A DNA stretch of 64,000 nucleotides, taken from the IMG/VR virus record IMGVR_UViG_3300032335_001059, positions 1 to 64,000 of that record. One strand, written 5' to 3'. The number at the start of each line of letters is the position of its first letter. Positions within the stretch are counted from its first letter, which is position 1. Below, piece after piece: positions 2,883 to 62,384 of this stretch. Origin of the DNA: a virus (Duplodnaviria; Caudoviricetes). Made by a program: the position numbers and the translations under genes. The notes beneath the pieces were generated by a model. That model worked only from the letters and a program-made list of their open reading frames with translations. It searched no databases and was not told the origin of the DNA.

Positions 2883-3288
2883 TTAACAATTTTTTTAATT
2901 TTAGGAAAACATTTATCAAATATTTAATTAAACTAAATTTAATTTTAGAATCTACATTTTCATTAATCAAAGGCGTAGCATCTACATTTTTGTCATTCAA
3001 TTCAATATTTGTATTATTCTTAAAGTACATATTATTTTGAATAAAAGATAAATTTAACTTACCTTCTATTTTTTCATCCATAATTCTATATACAGACCAA
3101 TCATCTAATTCTTCTGGTGTCATATATCCAATCGAATTTACAACTTCATTTTCGTCATAATAAAGTATATAGTTAAAAGGGAACAAACCCTCTGATTCGT
3201 TTTCTATAAATGGTAATATTTCATAAGACAACTTATTTACTATTCCGTAATTCAAATATTCTTGAGGTTCTATACTTATTGTTCTCAC
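2860..3288 (-). CDS. Hypothetical protein
   Basis: 142-aa ORF overlapping both neighbours by a few nt. Confidence 0.55.
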   Translation of the reverse strand: MRTISIEPQEYLNYGIVNKLSYEILPFIENESEGLFPFNYILYYDENEVVNSIGYMTPEELDDWSVYRIMDEKIEGKLNLSFIQNNMYFKNNTNIELNDKNVDATPLINENVDSKIKFSLIKYLINVFLKLKKLLNGYFYKK

Positions 3289-4169
3289 GAGTTTAATGCG
3301 GTTAAAGTGTTAATAATAAATTGCCGTAAAGTTTGATTATTGAAATTATTGTTTCCGTGTCCACTTGCTTGGTGCGAATTTACATCCATTTGACTTGGCC
3401 CACCAGATTGCCCCAATAAAGATAATTCAGCAATTTCTTGATTTAAAATAGATGCAGCTGGAGCTATAGTATAACTTAAAACTTGGTCATCTACTATATT
3501 GTTTACAGTATTCCCACTTCTTGTTCCGCAAAACCAATATCTTTGAAAAGTTCCCGCAGTTATTGGATTACTTTGTGCAGTACTTTGGCTTTGATTCATA
3601 AAAACTATTAATCTTGAAACACCAGCATTTAAACTTCTTTGCATTGCTGCACTTCTTGATGCTGTTGCAAAACCATTCCCCATCATATTTGCAGCATTAC
3701 CAAAATTATAAAATCTTCCGTATATGAATTGCGAACAATTAAATCTATCTGCACCCCATTTTGGAGCTGTAGAGGGATTATAGCCCATAGTCAAATATCC
3801 TCCAGTAGAACCAGGAATATTTGAAAAATATCCAAATTGGTCTACCCAACTTAAATTAGCAACATTTTGTTCTTGCACAAAATAGTTGTTACTAATTATA
3901 TTTGTTCTTGCAGCTATTCTATTTCCAGTACCAGCGTATAAATTTAACCTATCTAAACAATCAAAAATACCAGTACTAACCATTGGCTTAATTAGGTTAT
4001 CATCTATTATGGTTAATATTGCATTATCAATACTTCCCCCATTAGCTATAATCCTATCTCTCCAAGCAATTGCTTGTGGACTTAAAGGAGGCAAATATCC
4101 TCCTTTATTATAGAATTTAACATCCAAACCTAAATATTTTGGAAACTTATTTTCTATAAAAATAGCCAT
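3285..4169 (-). CDS. Tail appendage protein (paralogous N-terminus MAIFIxNxFPKY)
   Basis: 294 aa beta-rich; N-terminus shared with 1239..2882. Confidence 0.6.
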   Translation of the reverse strand: MAIFIENKFPKYLGLDVKFYNKGGYLPPLSPQAIAWRDRIIANGGSIDNAILTIIDDNLIKPMVSTGIFDCLDRLNLYAGTGNRIAARTNIISNNYFVQEQNVANLSWVDQFGYFSNIPGSTGGYLTMGYNPSTAPKWGADRFNCSQFIYGRFYNFGNAANMMGNGFATASRSAAMQRSLNAGVSRLIVFMNQSQSTAQSNPITAGTFQRYWFCGTRSGNTVNNIVDDQVLSYTIAPAASILNQEIAELSLLGQSGGPSQMDVNSHQASGHGNNNFNNQTLRQFIINTLTALNS

Positions 4170-4456
4170 TATAATAATATCAAATAAGATAAGTTTCCAG
4201 TTCCAGATACTAATATTTCACTTGCATTATTACAAGGAATAGTTAAAGGAGGACTAGTTAAAGTTAAAGTATTTCCGTTACCTGTAACAAAACTACATTC
4301 TGACATTAAAATTATAGCTTTACATTTGAAATCAGGTAAAGCAGTAAGTGTACCTGTTAAAGCAACAAGTGAAGTTCTACTACCACTTGCGGTAACAAAT
4401 CTAAAAGAGTCTAAAATAGATTTGAGGAATGACTCCCCAGCGGTTAATCCACTCAT
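4169..4456 (-). CDS. Small putative virion protein
   Basis: 95-aa ORF, stop/start overlap with neighbours. Confidence 0.55.
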   Translation of the reverse strand: MSGLTAGESFLKSILDSFRFVTASGSRTSLVALTGTLTALPDFKCKAIILMSECSFVTGNGNTLTLTSPPLTIPCNNASEILVSGTGNLSYLILL

Positions 4457-4698
4457 ATTATTTTTTTAGTTATACGTTGAACATCTATATATATAGCGTT
4501 GTATTCGTCTTCAGTAAGATAGTCATTAACATAATTTCTATCTTTTAGAATTCGACTGTACAAGTACAGAAGTTTGGCTTCATCTAAACATTGTTTAGAT
4601 ATTATACCAAAACTTAACTTATTTACAAAGTTATTACTTATTTTCTGAATAGACAAATTTATATTGTTAATTGCAGAAAGATTTTGATTTTTATCCAT
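4453..4698 (-). CDS. Small putative structural protein (start likely 4698, MDKNQ)
   Basis: Track start 4767 overlaps the upstream gene; ATG at 4698 gives an 8-nt overlap. Confidence 0.55.
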   Translation of the reverse strand: MDKNQNLSAINNINLSIQKISNNFVNKLSFGIISKQCLDEAKLLYLYSRILKDRNYVNDYLTEDEYNAIYIDVQRITKKII

Positions 4699-22274: not shown

Positions 22275-22574
22275 ATGATAAATTTACAAAGTTTAATGTC
22301 AGAATTAAGTAATTTTGGCATCAGAAAAGCATTAACACCTGTTAGAGAGTTCGACGTTGATGCAAATGAATTCAGAACTCTAAAGTTTACTCCTGATGCT
22401 AATTACAGCACAAACAAATTATTTAAAGTAAGTGTAGGTGACTTTACTTTAAAATGTACAGAATCCGTAATGGATGCAATTGCAACTAACGATGTCGCAG
22501 TTGTTGGCTTGTTTGAGTTTGAAAATGACAAGAAGGAATTGGTTAAGTATGCAAGGATTACAGGCGTTAAATAA
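22275..22574 (+). CDS. Hypothetical early protein (start likely 22275)
   Basis: 99 aa, high-expression codon style; the track's GTG extension lies in non-coding-looking G/C-skewed sequence. Confidence 0.6.
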   Translation: MINLQSLMSELSNFGIRKALTPVREFDVDANEFRTLKFTPDANYSTNKLFKVSVGDFTLKCTESVMDAIATNDVAVVGLFEFENDKKELVKYARITGVK

Positions 22575-22813
22575 CGCTTGTAATTCTTCATAGTTATACC
22601 TATCTTTCATAGTTATCCACTCATTTTTCCTTCTACAAGTTATTGATATTCAGTCAAGTATACTGATAATTGTGGAAGGCAACCAATCCCTATTTTAGGT
22701 TGTCTTCCCAATTGTTCTTACAAAACTATAGTAATAGATATAACACTTTCAAAAAATAAACTAGAAAATTAACCATACATTTTCAACCATCAACCAACAA
22801 AAAAATTAACATC

Positions 22814-22987
22814 ATGAAAAACAAAGCAAACTTATTCTTCATCATAGCATTAATCAGCTCACTAACACTAATATTTGTTCAATATATTGACAATCTAGAC
22901 AATCAAAGTCTATTGTTCTTCTCATTTAGTTTAATATTATGTGCAATAACTAGCATATTTTTATTCATTCGAGAAAATGACAAATAA
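22814..22987 (+). CDS. Small two-TM membrane protein, 57 aa (not in ORF track)
   Basis: MKNKANLFFIIALISSLTLIFVQY...SLLFFSFSLILCAITSIFLFIRENDK*, translated by hand. Confidence 0.55.
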   Translation: MKNKANLFFIIALISSLTLIFVQYIDNLDNQSLLFFSFSLILCAITSIFLFIRENDK

Positions 22988-23019
22988 CTCCTAATCCTAA
23001 GCATGATGTAAAACTGCTT

Positions 23020-23690
23020 AATTAATGCACCACAACTCATGTGGATATAAAGACTTCTTAGTTTAGAGGAAACTGGGTTATTGCCTGTTAGTGTAACTCT
23101 TGTAAAATATCTAAGATGTGAAACCACCTGATTATATAAATCTTGGTTTTGGAGTGATGTCCTAAAGGGTTAGAATCCCAATTACTCAGTATTAATCAGC
23201 TCCCAAGGATGAGCAGTTGTAATAGAGACAACAAGTAGCATAAACAGGCAATAATGCGCTATTACAACTGAGTGCAGAATACTAATGCTAAATAGTATAA
23301 ACTAGTTATACATAAAGTAATGTAAAGCCATTACAACACAATAAGATGTGTTCAGTTGTATAATGAATAACAACCTGCAAAGTCGTAAAACATTGACACG
23401 ACTATAAATAATAATGTCAGATGTGAGTCTGAATGTGTTGTTCCCTTGAGAAAGGAATGTATTTGGAAAGAGTGCTAATAAACCACTACAACACAAATGA
23501 GTTCTCAGCAAGTAGTTAACCAATAAACAGAAATGTTTAAATCTATATGGGTTTGGTGAAATCATATATTAACTACGTGACCCTACTCTTATATGTTCCA
23601 ATAAGATTGAAGTCTGATGGAAATCGTCAAACCGTAAAACGTAAAGATGGACTTAGAAAAGCTAAGTAAGAAAGAGAGTGCTAAACAAAA
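23020..23690 (+). ncRNA. Candidate large structured non-coding RNA (boundaries approximate, strand inferred from GNRA loops)
   Basis: More than 12 helices, e.g. 23214-25/23259-70 (12 bp), 23078-89/23243-54 (12 bp, crossing), 23306-12/23357-63 three-way junction; GNRA loops; no credible ORF. Confidence 0.65.
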
Positions 23691-23730
23691 ATCAATTAAA
23701 GTCAATTAAAAACAATTAACAAACAAAACA

Positions 23731-24198
23731 ATGGAATTAAAATTAAATTCATGGTATGTATGGTTATGGAATTATACATACAACGAAAAGTTACCAAGTA
23801 ACTTATGCCCTTTCTTTTGGAAATTAGTATTAGCAATAATATTATTTATACCAAATTTTATTTTACGTTTACCTTTAGTCATAGGAAGTATTTTTAATAA
23901 AAAAATTGAAAAAGAATCTAGTGCATTAGGTGTAATTATATGGCTTCTATTATGTGCTTTTACAATTACAACATATACTTTGTTTCATTTTTTTATGTAT
24001 TTATTTGATGCTTATAGTTATGATAGTGCAGCAGCTAGTTGTGGTGGTATAATTTTAGTATGTTTAGGAATAAGTATAATATATTATTATTTATGTGATA
24101 AATCTTATTATTTAGAAAATAGTTTAAAAAATAATATTATAATAAATTACAGTAAATCAGTTTATAGTAAATATTGTCCTAAAATTAATTGGAAATAG
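23731..24198 (+). CDS. Membrane protein (3-4 TM)
   Basis: 155 aa with hydrophobic segments. Confidence 0.7.
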   Translation: MELKLNSWYVWLWNYTYNEKLPSNLCPFFWKLVLAIILFIPNFILRLPLVIGSIFNKKIEKESSALGVIIWLLLCAFTITTYTLFHFFMYLFDAYSYDSAAASCGGIILVCLGISIIYYYLCDKSYYLENSLKNNIIINYSKSVYSKYCPKINWK

Positions 24199-25420: not shown

Positions 25421-25798
25421 ATGAAAAACATACAATCAACACACGCAACATTTGAACAATCTAAATTGCTTAAAGAGAAAGGATTTAATATATCTTGTAA
25501 AGAAGGGTGGTATGTAGCTCAATTAGACCCTTATAAAGGTCAATTATTTCCTGATGATACAGGAGGTAAACACGAAATAGAAAAACCAGAACAATGGCAA
25601 GTAGTTGAATGGTTAAGAGTTGAAAAGGGTATTTGGGTATGTGTAAATATAAACGGTTTAGATAAACTATTTACTTTTGATATTCATAACTACAAGCAAA
25701 AAGGTTGTTCGTTAGAGTCTATCCTCGATGGCGGGTTCATAACACCACAAGAAGCTTACTCAGCAGCATTTGATTACATTTTAAAAGAATTGATATGA
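25421..25798 (+). CDS. Hypothetical protein, paralogue of 26612..26998
   Basis: TFEQSKLLKEKGF...QVVEWLRVEKG...TPQEAYSAAF. Confidence 0.7.
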   Translation: MKNIQSTHATFEQSKLLKEKGFNISCKEGWYVAQLDPYKGQLFPDDTGGKHEIEKPEQWQVVEWLRVEKGIWVCVNINGLDKLFTFDIHNYKQKGCSLESILDGGFITPQEAYSAAFDYILKELI

Positions 25799-26610
25799 AA
25801 AACATAAATTTGTTACCAACGGATAAACCAAGTAGGTTATGGTTGTATAAAAACTTTGATAATTTACTAACTGGATTAACAGTTGAAAAATCAAAAGATA
25901 TTCATCCTCAACACATCTACATCACTTCTGATGAAGAAATTAAAGAAGGGGATTGGGTTAAACTATTTGTGAAACACATAAATAAAGAATGGGTTCATAA
26001 AATAACCAAAGAAGATTTACTTTTATACTCTGATTTTAACAATGAAGGTTCTAAAATCACCCTAACAACAGACCAAAACTTAATCAAAGATGGTGTACAA
26101 GCTATTGATGATGAGTTTTTAGAATGGTTTGTTAAGAATCCAAGTTGTGAGAGTGTTGAGACTGATTTAGTTCCTGTAAATTATTTTGGTTCAGAAACTA
26201 TAGTTAATAGTTATGGGTTTTATAAATTTATTTACAAAATCATCATTCCACAAGAAGAACCTAAAAGAAAAATAGATACTTGTTATAATTTTAATATAGA
26301 AATTGGTTGTGTACAAAATATTTGTAGATGTGAACAAGAAGAACCTAAACAAGAAACTATTGAAGAAGCCTTAAATTATCAACTTAATTTTATACACGAT
26401 GTGGTTAGAAATAAAGATTTTGATTTAGGTTTTCAAACAGGTGGAATATTCGGTGCTAAATGGCAAGCAGAAAGAAGGTATAGTGAGGAAGAGGTTTATA
26501 AATTACTATTAAAACATCAATCTGATTATAGAAGCTATGTAAGAAATTCATATCCGTTAACTTGGAGTTTTGATATTAAAGATTGGTTTGAAAAATATAA
26601 AAAGAAATAA
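25795..26610 (+). CDS. Mosaic hypothetical protein
   Basis: 271 aa; HIYITSDEEIKEGDW, AIDDEFLEWFVKNPSCE, repeated EEPK. Confidence 0.7.
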   Translation: MKNINLLPTDKPSRLWLYKNFDNLLTGLTVEKSKDIHPQHIYITSDEEIKEGDWVKLFVKHINKEWVHKITKEDLLLYSDFNNEGSKITLTTDQNLIKDGVQAIDDEFLEWFVKNPSCESVETDLVPVNYFGSETIVNSYGFYKFIYKIIIPQEEPKRKIDTCYNFNIEIGCVQNICRCEQEEPKQETIEEALNYQLNFIHDVVRNKDFDLGFQTGGIFGAKWQAERRYSEEEVYKLLLKHQSDYRSYVRNSYPLTWSFDIKDWFEKYKKK

Positions 26611-56207: not shown

Positions 56208-59200
56208 TTAATTTTCATTTTCAATTTGAATTTGTAAAGCTTCGTTTACAAATCTTTCTCCTTGAGAATATAAAGGAATAGTTCTTGTTACAGATTTTCC
56301 TAATTTTTTACGAGCTTTTTCAGAAACTTCTTCGTCACCAAAAATTACATCATTAAAATTACTAAACATTCTTCCTACACTTTGAACAGTAGATACTGCT
56401 GGTGCAGGTGATATTAAAATTTGACCTTTACCTTCTATTTCAAATGGAGTAAAAAATGCCATTTCAGCTACATATCTATCAGTTACTCTAATAACATATG
56501 CTAATTTTTTACGTCTTTCTTCATCATCATCATCTCCTTTTAAAGCAGCTAATAATAATGTAGCAGCAGCTAATATAGTAAATTCAGCAATAGATTCTTT
56601 AACATTTGCTTTTTCCATATCATCTAACTTACTCCAATTTAATGATTTAGTAAAAATAAATTTAGTTAATGATACAAATCTACCTTCAATATATTCTTGT
56701 AATTGATAATCATATTGACGTTTACCAAAATGAGATTGAATCATTGCTGGCATCCATCCTCTATGTTGCATTACTGCTCTACCAAGAAACCATTTTTTTA
56801 ATAAAACCTTATCATCAGGATTCATATTACCTAAAGCTCTACCATTAACATGAAGAACTTTTTGTCTAAATGCTTCTTTAACACCTTCAGTTATTTCTTC
56901 TTTACCTACATATTGTAATTCTCCTTTAACTAATTTCCAATCATCCCATTTAATAGAATGTTTGTTAGATTTAATCATTGCAATTAAACCTGCTTTATGT
57001 AAATGTGCTTCAGTCCATTGCATAAGTGAGTATGGTCCAGGAACTTTATGTAATATTTTGTTTTCAGAACGTATTTTATTAAATTCATCTTTAACAAATT
57101 CATTTATTTCTACATTTAACATTTCAACAAATTTGTTAGCTTTAATAATATCTTCACTTAATTCACTAAATGGTCCAGCACTTACTACAAGTGAAGCAAA
57201 TCCATAATTTTTACTACTATACCATTTTCCTCCAACTCCCATTAATAATTGCATTGATTTACCACCAAGTATGTTAGTTACAGGAGAGTATAAGTTATAA
57301 CCTATATTATTTAAACCAGTATATTTAAGCAAAACGTCTTTTGATTTACTCCAAGATATTATTTTTTCTGTTCCTTTAGGTATTAAACCTAATGCTTCAG
57401 TAATACCATTACCTGTAACTTTAAATCCACTTTCTTTTTCTACAGTTTTACCATATACAGTAGTATCAATAAAATTTTCAAATCTTCTAATTTCATTTTC
57501 TAAATTTTTAGATAATTTAATATTACCGTAACCTTCTTTAACTTCTTCTCCAACAACATTAGTTATTGTTTTTTCTTGTTCTTGTAATACATTTTTAGCT
57601 ATTTCTAATGTAGTTTCAATAGATTTAAGTTCTTGATATCTTACTGCTGATTCATAAAATACAGCTAAGCTATAACCTAAATCATAAGATTTATCTTTTT
57701 GAACAAAATCTTCTCTTGTGCTATTAGGGTCAAACTTTCTTTTACCTAATACAGGAATGCTTTTAACAAGTTCTTTAGTAAAAGGGTCAACTTTATTAAC
57801 TTCAGCTTCATCAAAGTTAATAGTTATGCTATCAATTAAAGATTCTCCTAATTTTAAACTACCTATTCCGTTATTAATAATTTTATTCAATAAATCTTTT
57901 TTAAATTCAGGTATAAAATTTTCAGATATATCAAAAGGTAAACCTCCATCTTCAATTTCTCCCATAACATAAGTATACAAATCATAAAATTCTTCTACAA
58001 CTGTACCTTTATATTTACCTTCTTTAATGTCTACCCATTTAGAATCTCTCCATTTAAGTTTAGGTTTATAAAATTTAGTTATTGTTTTATTATCTTTAAC
58101 CCATTCTTGTAAATACTTAACGTTATCTTCTTTAACAAATTTTTCAGCTAATTCTTGTTGTTTTTCACTACTTAAATCTGCATATTTTTCAGATGCTTTA
58201 ATATAAGCTAATTTACGAGCAACTTCTGATGTAGAATTTTCTAGCATTTCTTTTTGTCTAGATTCAGCTATTTTATATTTTTCATTATCGAAAGTAGCAT
58301 TTTCAGAAAACCAAGAAATATCTCCTTTTGAAATAGCTTCTTTAGCTTCAATATAAAATTCACCTTTAAATTCACGAATTAAATATCCTGTTTTTTTACC
58401 TTTAACTGTTTGCAAAAACATACTATACATATCTTCACCAGTTTTACCAGTAAAAGTTTGCAAATCACTAACTAATTTTTGCAATTTAGTTCCTAAAGTT
58501 CTAGCTTTATTTCTACCTATTGCTAATCTTTCTTGTACTTGTTTGTACATAGAAGCTATAATAGGAACTTCAGAATAAGATGCACCTAAAGCAAAACCTT
58601 GAAAAGCATTAGTATCTTTAATAGGTTTTAATACATCATCTTCAGTTTCAATAGGACTTCCTTTAAAACTTAAATTTTGAAAAACATTCTGAACAAGTTT
58701 ATTTTGAACTTTATCATTTAATTCTTGATATAGTAATGAAGCTCTACCAACTATTTCTTTAATCATAGCTTCATCTTTTTTATTATCAGTTTTAATATAT
58801 TTATTTAATTCTGAATATGTTATTAAATCGTTTTTAAAATCACGATAATTTGCGTCAACATCATCACTTAAAGATAAAGCACTTTCAATAGCAGCTAAAT
58901 CAGAAAAAGCGTTTCTTAAAATTTCTTCATTTGATATATCTTGTTGAAGCTTACTCATTAAAGAAGTTTTAGCAGCTATCAATCTGTCTATTTTATCAGA
59001 ATTATTTTTGTTTCTAATACTTACTAACTTTTCTACTTGTTTAAATAAAGAACTTAACATAGTGTTAATTTTTTTATTTTTAGAAGTTTGAGCTAGTACA
59101 GGAAGTCTTTCAGAAACAGTATAAGATATACCGTTTTTAGTAGAAGCTTTGACATAAAGTAATTCTTGAAAATCTACTTTCTTTTTTTTATCTTGCAAAG

Positions 59201-62200
59201 TTTCTTCTACCATTTCTTTATAATGCTCTTGTTGTTCAGAATTACCTCTAAACTTTTTATACTTAGTAGTTGGATTTCTACTACGTATTGAAGTTTTGTA
59301 ATCTAACATTTTTAACTCTTTATCTTTAGTTATTTCCAATAAATCTATAGTACCTGCTTTCTTTTTCTTTATAGATGCAATAGGTAATTCAGTAACTAAA
59401 ACGCTACCTTCTTCTTTAGCTTTATTAATAATAGGGTCAATAATAGCATGAATGTTTATTACTGTACCTTCGCTAACTCCTTCTAAAGGTATTCCGTTAA
59501 AATGTCTATTGTATTCAGGAAAAGCAGAAGCTATTCTGTTAGCAGCAACAGCATGAAATATATCACCTAATGCTTGAGCAGTAGTGTTAGTTAAATTATT
59601 AAGATTTCTATTTTTTTGAATTAAAGTACTAATTCTAGAAAAACCTGATTCACCATTAACTATATATGTTTTACCATCTGCTGATAAAGTAATATTATTT
59701 TTTAATAAATCATTATATATTTCAGCTTGAGTATCTAATTCTTGTTGAAATGAAATTTTATTAAATGTACCTTTTTGAAAATTAATCATGCTATCTTCAA
59801 CAACACTACTAGCCGCAGCAAATACTTCATCAAATAAAGTAACATCTTTTATTTTAAAAATATTTTTAAATATTTGAAGAATTTCTTCCCATAAATTTTT
59901 AAAAGAACTTCTAGTTGCAGGTAAATTTTTTAAGTCATTGATAAAAGTAGAATCAGTAAAAATATGAGTTAAAACTTCATCTATATCAAAAATAGAATAT
60001 TGTTTAGTAATATTATTTTTGTTATTTTTTAAATGTAACCATAACCTGTTTAAATTTTTTACATTTTCATTATCAGGATTAGCTTTAATAAAATTAGAAG
60101 TATAAGCATGTAATATTTCATGTAACATTAAAGGTATAGGGTGAGCTTTTGTACCTGATGCTACATATATTTTATCATCTCTAGTATCATAAAAAGCAGC
60201 TCCTTTAAAATCATCACCTAAATCCTCTTTCATATTACGATTAGGTATATTATTTTTAGTAAAATAAGGTACGCTAATTACTTCAATAGGTACATTTAAA
60301 TCTAATTTTAATAATTTTTTAGCAACATTGCTCATAGTACTTTCACTATTAGCAATTTTATTTAATACAGTAGTAGAATCGTTAATAGGACTTCCTAAAA
60401 AATCTAATATTCTGCTATTAGAATCTATACCTTCTTCTTTATTAAATAATATTTTATTACTTAATTCAGGTGTAATTTCTATTTCATTCCAAGTATTACC
60501 ATATTCATCTGTAATTTTATTTACTTTATAGTTTTTATTAAGAATATTAGTTACAGTATTTTCATAGAAATTATAAATAGGTTTTAAAGCACCAAATCCT
60601 TCTGTTCCTACTCTTTCAAGTTCTTGTTTAAGTTGGGCTATTTCATTGTCTATGCGTTTTTCTTGCTGTTCTACAGTAATAATAAACTTTTCTTTTTGCT
60701 TAGAATTCAAATCAACATAATCAAATTTTACACCTGATGGATTAGTTGTAGATTCTCCTGTTTTATTTAACGAAGTTTCTTTATCACTATAAACTGCATA
60801 ACCATTTTTTTTATAACCATTTTCTACAGTTAGATAGAAAACTTTTGTACCGTCAATTATTTCAGAAGTAAAAACATTTTGTTTTTCTTTTAAAAAAGAT
60901 TTTTCTTTTTCAAGCTCTTTAATTCTATCTTCTTTCTGTTTCTTAAACTCTTCTAAAGTAGTATGTTTTTCAACTTTACTTGCTGTATTACCAGTAGGAA
61001 ATAATACTTTTTCATACCCTTTTTTAGCACTATCTTGTATAATAGATTTAACAAAGAATGTTACCCAATTATTATCTTTATTTAGGAGTTGTAAGAATTG
61101 GTTTTGACTATTTCCATTTTGAGTGTGCAAATCATTAACTCTGTTATCATACTCTTCTTGTGATATATACTTTTTTCTTAGGGCTTCTTTTAATTCAAAA
61201 ATTAATCCATTATAATTTTCTTTTTGAGAACTTAAATTTCCTTTATTTCTACCTTTCTGAAATAAATCAGATTGTACTTCTAGTATTCTACGGATTTTAA
61301 ATTTACTTTCTGTTACAGCTCTATCAATAATTTTAAGATATTCATATTCACTAATTTCCCCTTTTTCTTTTTTAATTTCAGCCTGTTTAAGATATTCTGG
61401 TATAATATCATCTGATACTTCATCACTTCTAAACCAACCGATACCTTTATCAGTAGCAAATTGAGCATGACCTTTAATACTAGGTGTAATACCTGGTGTA
61501 GCTATTTCTTGTTCTGTATAATTAACTCCTCCTGGAACTGTTAAATTAGAGTGATAAGTAGTAGGTCTTTCGTTAGCTTTTAATCTTTTAGAAACTTCAT
61601 TATAATATTCATCTGAACCAGGTTCTAACAAACCTTCATTATCTATTTGTCTATAAATTTTATCTAATACTTCTTCTTCAGTTTCTGTAAAAGTATTTCC
61701 TGAATCATTAGAAGTTGTAAAACCTTTACTTTTAGCAAGATTAATTTCAATAGTAAAACTATAATTGGCTAATAAATTAGTAATTATTTCTTCTCTATTA
61801 GTTTTACCACTATCTAATATCAACTGTTTTTGCTCTTTAGGTATAGCAAGTTCAGTAAGAATTTTATTTAAATCCCAATTAGCTTTTTTACCTTTTTCAA
61901 AAATTTGTTTAGCTTTATCAGAATTTAATATATCTATTGATTTTAATCCATAATTTACAGAAGGTTCTTGTTGAAACAAAGACATTTGGTTAGAATCACC
62001 GTCCTTTTTTGTCCATAACTTTTTAGCTAAACTTATAGACCATATATTTTTATTTACACCACCTATATTAATTGGTTCAGCAGCATAATCATAACCTTTT
62101 TCATTTAAACTATTAGCAAATTTAGTAGCTGTTTCTTTAGTAAAAAGTTTGCGTTCACCTTGATTAGTTAATAATTTAAAACTTTTATAAAGTTCTAAAT

Positions 62201-62384
62201 TTTGTTTCCAAGGTAAAGTTACCATTCCCATATCAAATATAGTAGGAATTGCAGAAGTACCTTTGTTATTAGCATTTTGCCAATCTTCTATTTTAACAGC
62301 AGTTGTTGCTGAAGAATATCCTAATTTTTTACTTAACTCTTTTACTTTAGGTAAGTTTGGTCTTATACATCTATACTGTCCCAT
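56208..62384 (-). CDS. Giant multidomain protein (2058 aa), probable virion-packaged cargo: zincin-like and PD-(D/E)XK nuclease-like domains
   Basis: LHEILHAY (60108-22); GDIFHA...IDLLEI...MLDYKTS...QQEHY (about 59220-59570); next to the RNAP-like ORF. Confidence 0.7.
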   Translation of the reverse strand: MGQYRCIRPNLPKVKELSKKLGYSSATTAVKIEDWQNANNKGTSAIPTIFDMGMVTLPWKQNLELYKSFKLLTNQGERKLFTKETATKFANSLNEKGYDYAAEPINIGGVNKNIWSISLAKKLWTKKDGDSNQMSLFQQEPSVNYGLKSIDILNSDKAKQIFEKGKKANWDLNKILTELAIPKEQKQLILDSGKTNREEIITNLLANYSFTIEINLAKSKGFTTSNDSGNTFTETEEEVLDKIYRQIDNEGLLEPGSDEYYNEVSKRLKANERPTTYHSNLTVPGGVNYTEQEIATPGITPSIKGHAQFATDKGIGWFRSDEVSDDIIPEYLKQAEIKKEKGEISEYEYLKIIDRAVTESKFKIRRILEVQSDLFQKGRNKGNLSSQKENYNGLIFELKEALRKKYISQEEYDNRVNDLHTQNGNSQNQFLQLLNKDNNWVTFFVKSIIQDSAKKGYEKVLFPTGNTASKVEKHTTLEEFKKQKEDRIKELEKEKSFLKEKQNVFTSEIIDGTKVFYLTVENGYKKNGYAVYSDKETSLNKTGESTTNPSGVKFDYVDLNSKQKEKFIITVEQQEKRIDNEIAQLKQELERVGTEGFGALKPIYNFYENTVTNILNKNYKVNKITDEYGNTWNEIEITPELSNKILFNKEEGIDSNSRILDFLGSPINDSTTVLNKIANSESTMSNVAKKLLKLDLNVPIEVISVPYFTKNNIPNRNMKEDLGDDFKGAAFYDTRDDKIYVASGTKAHPIPLMLHEILHAYTSNFIKANPDNENVKNLNRLWLHLKNNKNNITKQYSIFDIDEVLTHIFTDSTFINDLKNLPATRSSFKNLWEEILQIFKNIFKIKDVTLFDEVFAAASSVVEDSMINFQKGTFNKISFQQELDTQAEIYNDLLKNNITLSADGKTYIVNGESGFSRISTLIQKNRNLNNLTNTTAQALGDIFHAVAANRIASAFPEYNRHFNGIPLEGVSEGTVINIHAIIDPIINKAKEEGSVLVTELPIASIKKKKAGTIDLLEITKDKELKMLDYKTSIRSRNPTTKYKKFRGNSEQQEHYKEMVEETLQDKKKKVDFQELLYVKASTKNGISYTVSERLPVLAQTSKNKKINTMLSSLFKQVEKLVSIRNKNNSDKIDRLIAAKTSLMSKLQQDISNEEILRNAFSDLAAIESALSLSDDVDANYRDFKNDLITYSELNKYIKTDNKKDEAMIKEIVGRASLLYQELNDKVQNKLVQNVFQNLSFKGSPIETEDDVLKPIKDTNAFQGFALGASYSEVPIIASMYKQVQERLAIGRNKARTLGTKLQKLVSDLQTFTGKTGEDMYSMFLQTVKGKKTGYLIREFKGEFYIEAKEAISKGDISWFSENATFDNEKYKIAESRQKEMLENSTSEVARKLAYIKASEKYADLSSEKQQELAEKFVKEDNVKYLQEWVKDNKTITKFYKPKLKWRDSKWVDIKEGKYKGTVVEEFYDLYTYVMGEIEDGGLPFDISENFIPEFKKDLLNKIINNGIGSLKLGESLIDSITINFDEAEVNKVDPFTKELVKSIPVLGKRKFDPNSTREDFVQKDKSYDLGYSLAVFYESAVRYQELKSIETTLEIAKNVLQEQEKTITNVVGEEVKEGYGNIKLSKNLENEIRRFENFIDTTVYGKTVEKESGFKVTGNGITEALGLIPKGTEKIISWSKSKDVLLKYTGLNNIGYNLYSPVTNILGGKSMQLLMGVGGKWYSSKNYGFASLVVSAGPFSELSEDIIKANKFVEMLNVEINEFVKDEFNKIRSENKILHKVPGPYSLMQWTEAHLHKAGLIAMIKSNKHSIKWDDWKLVKGELQYVGKEEITEGVKEAFRQKVLHVNGRALGNMNPDDKVLLKKWFLGRAVMQHRGWMPAMIQSHFGKRQYDYQLQEYIEGRFVSLTKFIFTKSLNWSKLDDMEKANVKESIAEFTILAAATLLLAALKGDDDDEERRKKLAYVIRVTDRYVAEMAFFTPFEIEGKGQILISPAPAVSTVQSVGRMFSNFNDVIFGDEEVSEKARKKLGKSVTRTIPLYSQGERFVNEALQIQIENEN

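Follow-up and report, generated by a model that had tools for sequence, protein, structure and literature searches.

What is encoded in the long gene-poor stretch at 23020-23690 of this phage genome, one large ornate RNA or something else? The window analysed here is the whole stretch of 64,000 nucleotides formed by positions 1 to 64,000 of the IMG/VR record IMGVR_UViG_3300032335_001059, which is 86.8 kb long and 99% complete; the phage is crAss-like and its sole related cultured phage is Cellulophaga phage phi14:2. Genes run leftward up to about 21.9 kb, including those for the major head protein, the portal and the large terminase, and rightward past the stretch, where DNA polymerase and helicase are found; thus the stretch lies just inside the rightward replication arm, after the divergence of structural and replication genes, in line with a previous sequence-only reading that had set it at the start of the early region. 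The same reading had proposed a single structured RNA of about 650 nt, belonging to classes such as GOLLD and ROOL or to a new one. Our analysis indicates that the stretch consists of two separate structured non-coding RNA genes, side by side on the + strand, and not of one giant RNA.

The general features described at first sight were all recovered. The + strand contains only one ORF, of 40 aa, and the ORFs on the minus strand (74, 87 and 38 aa) lack PHROG matches; GC content is 0.32-0.35 in the stretch and 0.18-0.29 in the flanks; all the stems listed are present at their positions and the direct repeat agagtgctaa occurs at both 23469 and 23675. Two perfect 12-nt complementarities are seen in the stretch, against 0.10 expected. 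The + strand folds better than its shuffled versions (z -4.9; minus strand, z -2.3), as anticipated from the density of helices; this holds for the stretch as a whole, where the upstream half supplies most of the signal (z -3.2), but not for the downstream RNA taken alone (z -1.5). A coding role for small proteins, for instance the 87-aa and 74-aa minus-strand ORFs, has close to no probability: these ORFs exist, and GenBank KC821624 carries three reverse ORFs of 34-39 aa over the homologous region, but no PHROG corresponds to them, the conserved blocks are identical at all codon positions, the lengths between blocks vary out of frame, and RefSeq removed the features at the matched place of phi14:2. 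Small ORFs called over such regions are spurious.

Comparison with known RNA classes gave a uniform result. The proposed Rfam check for GOLLD, ROOL, group I and II introns and RNase P returned zero matches: with Rfam 15 nothing reached the gathering score in the 64-kb window, and 22600-23900 yielded only chance-level hits at E values up to 10. Likewise, the RNA had no match at gathering score in 13 other loci of the downstream family (family A) or 11 of the upstream one (family B), where the sole Rfam matches are adjoining tRNAs and tmRNAs. Therefore neither RNA is GOLLD, ROOL, an intron or RNase P, and the suggested membership in the first two has to be abandoned; the other option, a new class, agrees with what is found, a structured + strand non-coding RNA whose class is not yet catalogued. 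The covariance models of OLE, raiA, HEARO and other large Rfam RNAs are also without a match. In addition, the ORFs on either side (22814-22987 and 23731-24198) do not represent two parts of a split gene, as an intron would require, and our reading of the structure gives a helix order devoid of the P3-P7 pseudoknot topology of group I introns. ARAGORN and the Rfam model RF00023 detected no tmRNA in the window or in the 86.8-kb record. A riboswitch or cis-regulatory leader is not indicated either, since no terminator-like site is present and the downstream genes are of many kinds, or are tRNAs or tmRNA. Neither family is described in the literature searched.

The partition into two genes comes from comparative data. 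Alignment with phi14:2 showed conservation confined to the downstream part; similarity to the closest relative, contig L050, begins abruptly at 23380; and, by local BLAST, fragments of the upstream part were found in other contigs, differently arranged. Together these findings separate the stretch into two families. Indeed, a first set of 15 contigs, later raised to at least 119, contains upstream blocks without family A, and family A is present without family B in four of five whole virus records. Between the two genes lies a spacer (23284-23380, + strand), in which four small hairpins and, at 23357-64, a TGTATAAT box are present. The spacer is not kept in register even among close relatives: the segment 23303-23381 is 89% identical in contigs L038 and L050, and there it is located about 240 nt farther from the family A RNA. 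The idea of a repeated promoter was discarded, GTTCAGTTGTATAAT occurring exactly once in the window, and sigma-70-like sites are no commoner than in shuffled sequences. No terminator-like site was detected in 22500-24000; since none separates the halves, both are probably carried on one primary transcript.

This last point, together with a minimum free energy fold of the whole stretch that closes end to end (z -4.9 against shuffles), is what can be said for one large ornate RNA of about 650 nt, GOLLD- or ROOL-like, spanning 23020-23690. Such an interpretation is nevertheless very improbable, because the halves belong to different families that are mostly found apart, the spacer is out of register even in the nearest relatives, each half has its own conserved terminal closing helix, and a GOLLD or ROOL match is absent. 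The single RNA is thus replaced by a pair of RNAs, about 263 and 306 nt long and belonging to unrelated families, with a spacer between them. This split and the definition of family B are new here.

The downstream gene (23381-23686, + strand, about 306 nt) is a minimal form of family A, without the optional P2 domain. Its boundaries were drawn from conservation across 68 full-length members. The covariance model built for the family, R1, describes the 3' domain only, and the 5' half was assessed by counting pairs; in the window R1 is matched over its full length (105 bits, E 1e-24). Members were recognized through a 17-mer common to the window and phi14:2, GAGTTCTCAGCAAGTAG, which occurs exactly in 116 viral loci, with the ordered flanking blocks in nearly all of them; R1 gave 101 matches among 100 sources, with E values from 1e-7 to 1e-28. 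A short Ala-Ser-Ser reading frame inside the 17-mer was considered and found unsupported. Family A copies are usually one per genome.

From 5' to 3', the family A order is P1, optional P2, P3, the P4/P5 junction, a joining strand, P6, GUGA, CCC, a UA bulge, P7 and the 3' end GGGUGCUAA, and four of the stems noticed previously (agtcgt/acgact, tcaga/tctga, the hairpin with the GAGA loop and gtagttaa/ttaactac) turn out to be P1, P3, P5 and P6. P1 (23381-23403) is a hairpin, AGUCG(U)/(A)CGACU, with the conserved loop AAACAUUGA; its stem varies across members (AGGU/ACCU, GUCGU/ACGAC, CUCAUU/AGUGAG), covarying in the window against the family consensus, and its loop is constant, having doubled as a search anchor for the members. 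P3 (23417-23432, UCAGA/UCUGA) shows compensatory changes in five of five pairs, with the loop UGUGAG in the window instead of the usual AGUAAU. Then follows a three-way junction (23434-23495), in which P4 encloses P5 and a variable hairpin, P5a, and all pairs are formed. P4 (23434-40/23489-95, UGUGUUG/CAACACA or covarying equivalents) has compensatory changes in all seven pairs and 97% of cells paired; in P5 (23441-57, loop CUUGAGAAA) four of four pairs show compensatory changes.

The junction is followed by the joining strand AAAUGAGUUCUCAGCAAGUAG (23496-23515), which includes the invariant 17-mer; the invariant strand with GAGUUCUCAGCAAGUAG is exact in the window at 23499-23515. Part of it, UUCUCAG (23502-08), can pair with the P5 loop sequence UUGAGAA (23446-52) as a candidate pseudoknot or kissing contact; the two are complementary in 98% of cells and both are unvarying. 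P6 (23512-19/23569-76, GUAGUUA/UAACUAC) surrounds a variable domain, with 96.7% of cells paired across 90 distinct sequences. The 3' domain (23577-23686) contains GUGA, CCC, the UA bulge, P7 and the tail. P7, the distal closing helix (23586-92/23666-74), surrounds a variable insert and probably replaces the local tcttat/ataaga pairing that had been drawn there. CCC (23581-83) faces G-A-G at 23676-78, where the family has GGG, so that a C-A mismatch (23582/23677) is present in the window. The tail is UGCUAA (23679-84).

The search for homologues advised for this locus gave more than 100 viral contigs per family, and compensatory changes were counted in the helices of both. For the 5' half of family A, 94.9% of cells are paired in 68 sequences and 39-47% when the partners are slid; double-changed cells are 233, against 46 in shuffles, and all 16 pairs of P3, P4 and P5 are compensatory. 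For the 3' half, the R1 alignment gives 91.5% of cells paired and 55 double changes against 12. G-U pairs are frequent in the helices and fit the + strand alone, which is therefore the family A strand. Identical peripheral inserts were also found in otherwise different members, as in module swapping.

The upstream gene (23021-23283, + strand, about 263 nt) is an extended form of family B, recognizable by conserved blocks in a fixed order: UAAUGCACC, CUCAU, GUGG-AUAUAAAG-ACUUCUUA, UAAGAUGU-GAAA-CCAC and CUGAUUA, followed by UUAAUCAG, CUCCCAAGG, AUGAG, CAGUUGUAAU, AUUACAACUG, A and GUGCA. The 5' motif, common to contig L029, was found in 15 contigs, and the central 20-mer in at least 119 IMG/VR contigs. 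Minimal members are 90-230 nt long and form a three-helix junction, with P2 CUCAC/GUGAG, a variable P3 tip and the tail GAGGG; RNAalifold, unaided, returned the same three helices for them. The extended form, including that of the window, has one more domain, of three helices, placed within the P2 loop, so that between the P2 strands minimal members have only the loop UUCCCAAGG and the window has an inserted domain of 168 nt. The order P1-P2(CCCAAGG loop)-P3 shared by family B members is present in the window.

The closing helix P1 (23026-23030/23272-23276, UGCAC/GUGCA) is paired in 13 of 13 extended and 40 of 40 minimal members, one of the latter being a compensatory GUAC/GUAC variant. In P2 (23036-23040/23209-23213, CUCAU/AUGAG) both sides change together from CUCAC/GUGAG to CUCAU/AUGAG. 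The 5' part of the inserted domain (23041-23134) pairs GUGG (23041-44) with CCAC (23124-27) and ACUUCUUA (23053-60) with UAAGAUGU (23112-19); GUrG/CyAC covaries in 15 of 15 members. In the inserted domain CUGAUUA (23128-34) also pairs with UAAUCAG (23193-99), and CUGAUUAA/UUAAUCAG is exchanged for AAUGAUUAA/UUAAUCAUU, both sides changing together. The loop CUCCCAAGG (23200-23208) is nearly invariant in the members found by the 5' motif alone; the constancy of CCCAAGG in the others is fixed by the search, because CCCAAGG is the start of the search 20-mer. P3 (CAGUUGUAAU/AUUACAACUG, 23214-25/23259-70), which corresponds to the 12-bp stem of the first description, has a variable loop and compensatory changes in its outer pairs. 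Across the 13 extended members 97.5% of cells are paired, compared with 27-42% after sliding, and eight pairs show compensatory changes.

The long complementarity reported between the P3 loop and an upstream segment is real and slightly longer than stated, 13 bp instead of 12: 23077-23089, in a variable insert, is the perfect complement of 23243-23255. It represents a candidate long-range loop-loop pairing specific to this phage, and both partners lie in variable parts. The 3' tail differs from the family, AGAAUAC being present at 23277-83 in place of AGAGGG; the GGG tail is found in 12 of 12 other extended members and in most minimal ones. Both window copies deviate at a near-invariant GGG, therefore either RNA could be impaired.

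Each RNA is organized around a small core, made of helices and almost invariant single strands; the hairpins added to this core vary freely from phage to phage and are even exchanged as modules. Another reading is that the blocks act as DNA, as a replication origin, a packaging site or promoters, such as the hairpin promoters of a virion RNA polymerase. In its favour, the lowest value of the cumulative GC skew falls at about 22.9-23.1 kb, the stretch is at the switch of gene orientation, and the phi14:2 virion polymerase uses single-stranded DNA in vitro, with no early promoter motif known. However, many of the compensatory changes give G-U pairs, equivalent to A-C mismatches in the opposite strand, elsewhere the elements reside inside rows of co-directional genes and tRNA/tmRNA clusters and not at junctions, and in phi14:2 the region is an abundant transcript; a DNA element is accordingly extremely improbable.

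Families A and B are both large and phage-restricted, each occurring in more than 100 uncultured phage contigs, and are not in Rfam. Family A is practically missing from the 185,579 species genomes of bacteria and archaea: the exact 17-mer was found in cellular genomes at 15 loci (14 contigs), and R1 confirms three loci (two phage-like 'Clostridium sp.' MAG contigs). Among cultured phages, phi14:2 is the only carrier of family A. Short blastn matches in others are false: that in a Lak megaphage is inside a coding sequence and R1 aligns only 33 nt of it, and those in E. coli phages are inside a regulator gene.

Phage phi14:2, a crAss-like member of the Steigviridae, is informative on expression. 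Its family A copy occupies approximately positions 2912-3367 of the record and contains all the core blocks, with an R1 score of 108 bits at 3182-3361. A transcriptomic study of this phage described two long intergenic 'long non-coding RNA' regions, at the g004-g005 and g005-g006 junctions, which are transcribed rightward, are more abundant than most genes, are present from the first time point and persist when other early transcripts decrease; no function was assigned to them (Drobysheva et al., bioRxiv 10.1101/2020.03.07.982082). In the same work the virion polymerase was active in vitro on single-stranded DNA, and its early promoters have no known motif (10.1101/2020.03.07.982082). At the left end of the phi14:2 record there are long gene-free regions at 2905-3589 and about 4102-4601, and the first holds the family A homologue, which is most likely the g004-g005 junction transcript, a correspondence between gene numbers and coordinates that we infer. 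By analogy, the RNAs of the window are probably made early, as had been supposed for this stretch.

The second phi14:2 region is a tmRNA gene, newly identified here. ARAGORN calls a tmRNA with the tag GSSVQKLAMVA, spanning 4031-4500; the score of the Rfam tmRNA model is 46.0 bits (E 4.5e-17), one bit below the cut-off; and the sequence is similar to tmRNAs that adjoin family A in other contigs. The protein encoded between RNA A and the tmRNA, gp010, has no Pfam family and is not SmpB.

Proximity to tmRNA genes is recurrent in family A. A same-strand tmRNA is present in 18 of 104 distinct loci, downstream in 16; in 14 it starts within 400 nt of the RNA 3' end, and in several only 5-15 nt after it. 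No tmRNA adjoins the family B RNA in any of 114 loci. In several family A loci a tRNA 3' end abuts the RNA 5' end, so that in other phages only 1-15 nt separate the family from flanking tRNA 3' ends and tmRNA 5' ends; its boundaries therefore coincide with sites cut by tRNA-processing enzymes. The phage of the window has no tRNA. Co-directional genes are found also upstream of family A in other phages. The next ORF follows the window RNA by 47 nt; among 74 other loci this distance is 10-46 nt in 26 and ranges up to 1.1 kb in the remainder.

Clustering of the neighbours of family A loci pointed to no RNA-related partner protein. The recurrent neighbours are an SPFH protein and an unknown protein (window 25795-26610, phrog_15656), the latter found in 34% of family A loci and 12% of family B loci, an only about threefold difference; its single-sequence AlphaFold prediction has a pLDDT of 34. 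Base pairing between A and tmRNA is no better than with shuffled tmRNAs, the duplex energies being within about 2 SD of them. A resemblance of the 3' tail to a Shine-Dalgarno sequence, one to a tRNA D-loop and a complementarity between A and B loops were considered as well, and are unsupported.

Overall, the stretch contains two independent RNA genes, and we regard it as likely that their products, made on an early transcript and cut out of it, are stable trans-acting RNAs built from an invariant junction core and swappable outer hairpins. Both would be transcribed within the early rightward transcript and then excised. In the family A loci of other phages release could occur through RNase P and tRNA 3'-end processing, because tRNA 3' ends and tmRNA 5' ends are found within 1-15 nt; in the window, which lacks tRNA and tmRNA, other RNases would have to release the RNAs. 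They would then accumulate as free species and act in trans, the invariant unpaired core possibly binding a conserved partner, either a host or phage protein or the ribosome.

A cis-acting role as leader of the early operon (antitermination of the HK022 put type, stabilization of the 5' end, a riboswitch or a translation enhancer) is an alternative, in which the RNAs would work while joined to the downstream genes or in the course of their common transcription. The two RNAs open the rightward arm and no terminator follows them, the distance to the next ORF is 47 nt here and 10-46 nt in 26 of 74 other loci, and the tmRNA is almost always downstream and rarely upstream, which suits an element acting on what follows. 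However, such a putative leader is rather improbable: since co-directional genes lie upstream too in other phages, the RNA does not usually open an operon; a gap of only 5-15 nt to tmRNA or tRNA leaves no room for an expression platform; and the phi14:2 region outlasts the declining early mRNAs, as expected of a separate stable species.

Catalysis or self-assembly can also be envisaged: A, B or both may be a candidate ribozyme, for example one cleaving its own boundary to free the downstream RNA, or a candidate self-assembling multimer. The unpaired junction strands are invariant at the level of ribozymes, with a 17-mer identical in more than 100 divergent phages; UUGAGAA and UUCUCAG could pair within one molecule or between two; and the peripheral domains are freely exchanged, a trait of RNase P and group I RNAs too. 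For the multimer, a precedent is offered by ROOL and GOLLD, which form RNA-only cages (PMC12286853). However, no known ribozyme model matches and the size is only half to a third of that of ROOL and GOLLD, thus we consider this possible, yet unlikely.

Returning to excised, trans-acting RNAs, a function for family A can be suggested with low confidence. The placement before tmRNA genes, together with the finding that the second phi14:2 RNA is itself a tmRNA, points to translation or ribosome rescue as the preferred sphere, and a role beside the phage tmRNA is the best guess. A more defined version, in which A would be either a partner of the phage tmRNA, in ribosome rescue or takeover of translation, or a ribozyme that matures the downstream RNA, and B a second RNA with a target of its own, is decidedly unlikely as a whole. 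If it were true, diverse lytic phages would carry family A as a means of reprogramming the translation of their hosts, beginning in the first minutes after infection.

Whatever their role, these are two RNA families absent from Rfam, each present in more than 100 uncultured phage genomes and with cores invariant at the level of ribozymes. Family A is available in a cultured pair, phi14:2 and Cellulophaga baltica, where it is most likely among the top transcripts, so that function, partners and three-dimensional structure are directly testable; its placement just before phage tmRNA genes provides the first functional lead. For annotation purposes, two RNA genes should be entered for the stretch.

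The closest known counterpart is the phi14:2 long non-coding RNA, for which abundance and timing only were reported, with no structure, family or function (10.1101/2020.03.07.982082). It is homologous to the family A RNA of the window and both open the rightward early arm of their crAss-like genomes; they differ since the phi14:2 copy is about 455 nt long, with the P2 domain and other inserts, and that of the window is a minimal one of 306 nt, with GAG for GGG. ROOL and GOLLD, shown by cryo-EM to form RNA-only cages (PMC12286853), share with families A and B the fact of being phage-borne, highly structured and often located among tRNA-type genes, with conserved cores and variable decorations. 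However, there is no match in sequence or structure, A and B are half to a third as large, and their carriers are crAss-like and other uncultured phages, with one known host, a species of Flavobacteriia.

Two other phage systems offer partial likenesses. Species 1 and 2 of phage T4 (rnaC and rnaD) are stable RNAs of 119-139 nt from the tRNA cluster, released by tRNA-processing enzymes; to our knowledge, their function is still unknown. As small stable phage RNAs among tRNA genes they recall the RNAs described here, but no similarity exists, family A is tied to tmRNA and not to a tRNA cluster as such, and the phage of the window has no tRNA. The put RNAs of phage HK022 are cis-acting antitermination elements of about 70 nt that fold in two stem-loops and act without a phage protein; as far as we know, they are confined to close relatives of one phage. 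Like the two RNAs of the window, they are phage RNA elements near the start of an early operon, and they represent the model for the cis-acting alternative.

The RNAs of family A carry traces of exchange between phages. Identical peripheral domains of 45-50 nt were found in family-A RNAs that are otherwise unlike each other, as inserts in helix P6 (loci L070, L081, L083, L085, L103, L104 and L105) or in helix P7 (L015, L035, L072 and L077), a distribution which shows that whole hairpin modules are swapped among phage RNAs through recombination. Moreover, a few phages possess a second family-A-like 3' domain, far more diverged and scoring 27-39 bits (L036:4506-4672, L057, L107, L053:8403-8508 and L114:1185-1269); since no more than a few hundred nt separate it from the main copy, and it is the downstream one in the cases checked, the two form tandem pairs. 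The sole matches to family A in cellular genomes are contigs of 'Clostridium sp.' MAGs, with two copies apiece (L124 and L130 on NZ_JBNMNU010000001.1, 100,089 bp; L131 on JBLHPD010000273.1); the 100-kb contig probably represents a phage genome that was assigned to the MAG by binning.

The family-A RNA of the window contains the sequence agagtgctaa twice, in the P5a hairpin (23469-23478) and in the conserved 3' tail (23675-23684). Beyond this phage, the P5a copy is present only in its closest relatives, L038 and L050, and it may act as an alternative pairing partner, or as a decoy for a reader of the 3' tail. The near-invariant GGG is replaced by GAG in this RNA (23677), and it is also missing, at 23279-23283, from the RNA of family B, the separate structured RNA gene upstream, which reads AGAAUAC versus AGAGGG in the family; the loss in both RNAs may be accidental, may mean that a reader common to the two has been lost, or may be a sign of decay.

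The spacer before family A holds, at 23357-23364, a perfect extended -10-like box, TGTATAAT, whose end precedes the RNA start by 17 nt. A repeated phage promoter was ruled out, because the 15-mer surrounding the box occurs once in the window. An uncharacterised 271-aa protein (phrog_15656; 25795-26610, + strand), with the N-terminal motif MKNI..LPTDK...YITSDEEIKEGDW, is a recurrent neighbour of family A; relatives are encoded on the same strand within 4 kb in 34% of family-A loci, whereas the figure for family B is 12%. The structure that AlphaFold predicted for this protein from its sequence alone was unusable.

Cellulophaga phage phi14:2 (L001) possesses a tmRNA gene at L001:3902-4373 (KC821624 about 4031-4502, + strand), which reaches 46.0 bits (E 4.5e-17) with the Rfam tmRNA model, one bit short of the cut-off. 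ARAGORN gives the tag peptide GSSVQKLAMVA, and the tiny annotated ORFs gp012-gp014 overlie the gene. Of the two abundant 'long non-coding RNAs' of phi14:2, this tmRNA most likely corresponds to the second, at the g005-g006 junction, reported without explanation by Drobysheva et al. (bioRxiv 10.1101/2020.03.07.982082).

The cumulative GC skew of the window reaches its minimum at 22850-23150, where leftward genes give way to rightward ones; the minimum may be a mere effect of gene orientation, and this region would also be the place to look for a replication origin. Finally, a 2058-aa ORF (56208-62384, - strand) returned no PHROG match and contains no DFDxD motif. In crAss-like phages this motif is the hallmark of the virion RNA polymerase, an enzyme of 2180 aa in phi14:2, with which the ORF may be compared on account of its size.
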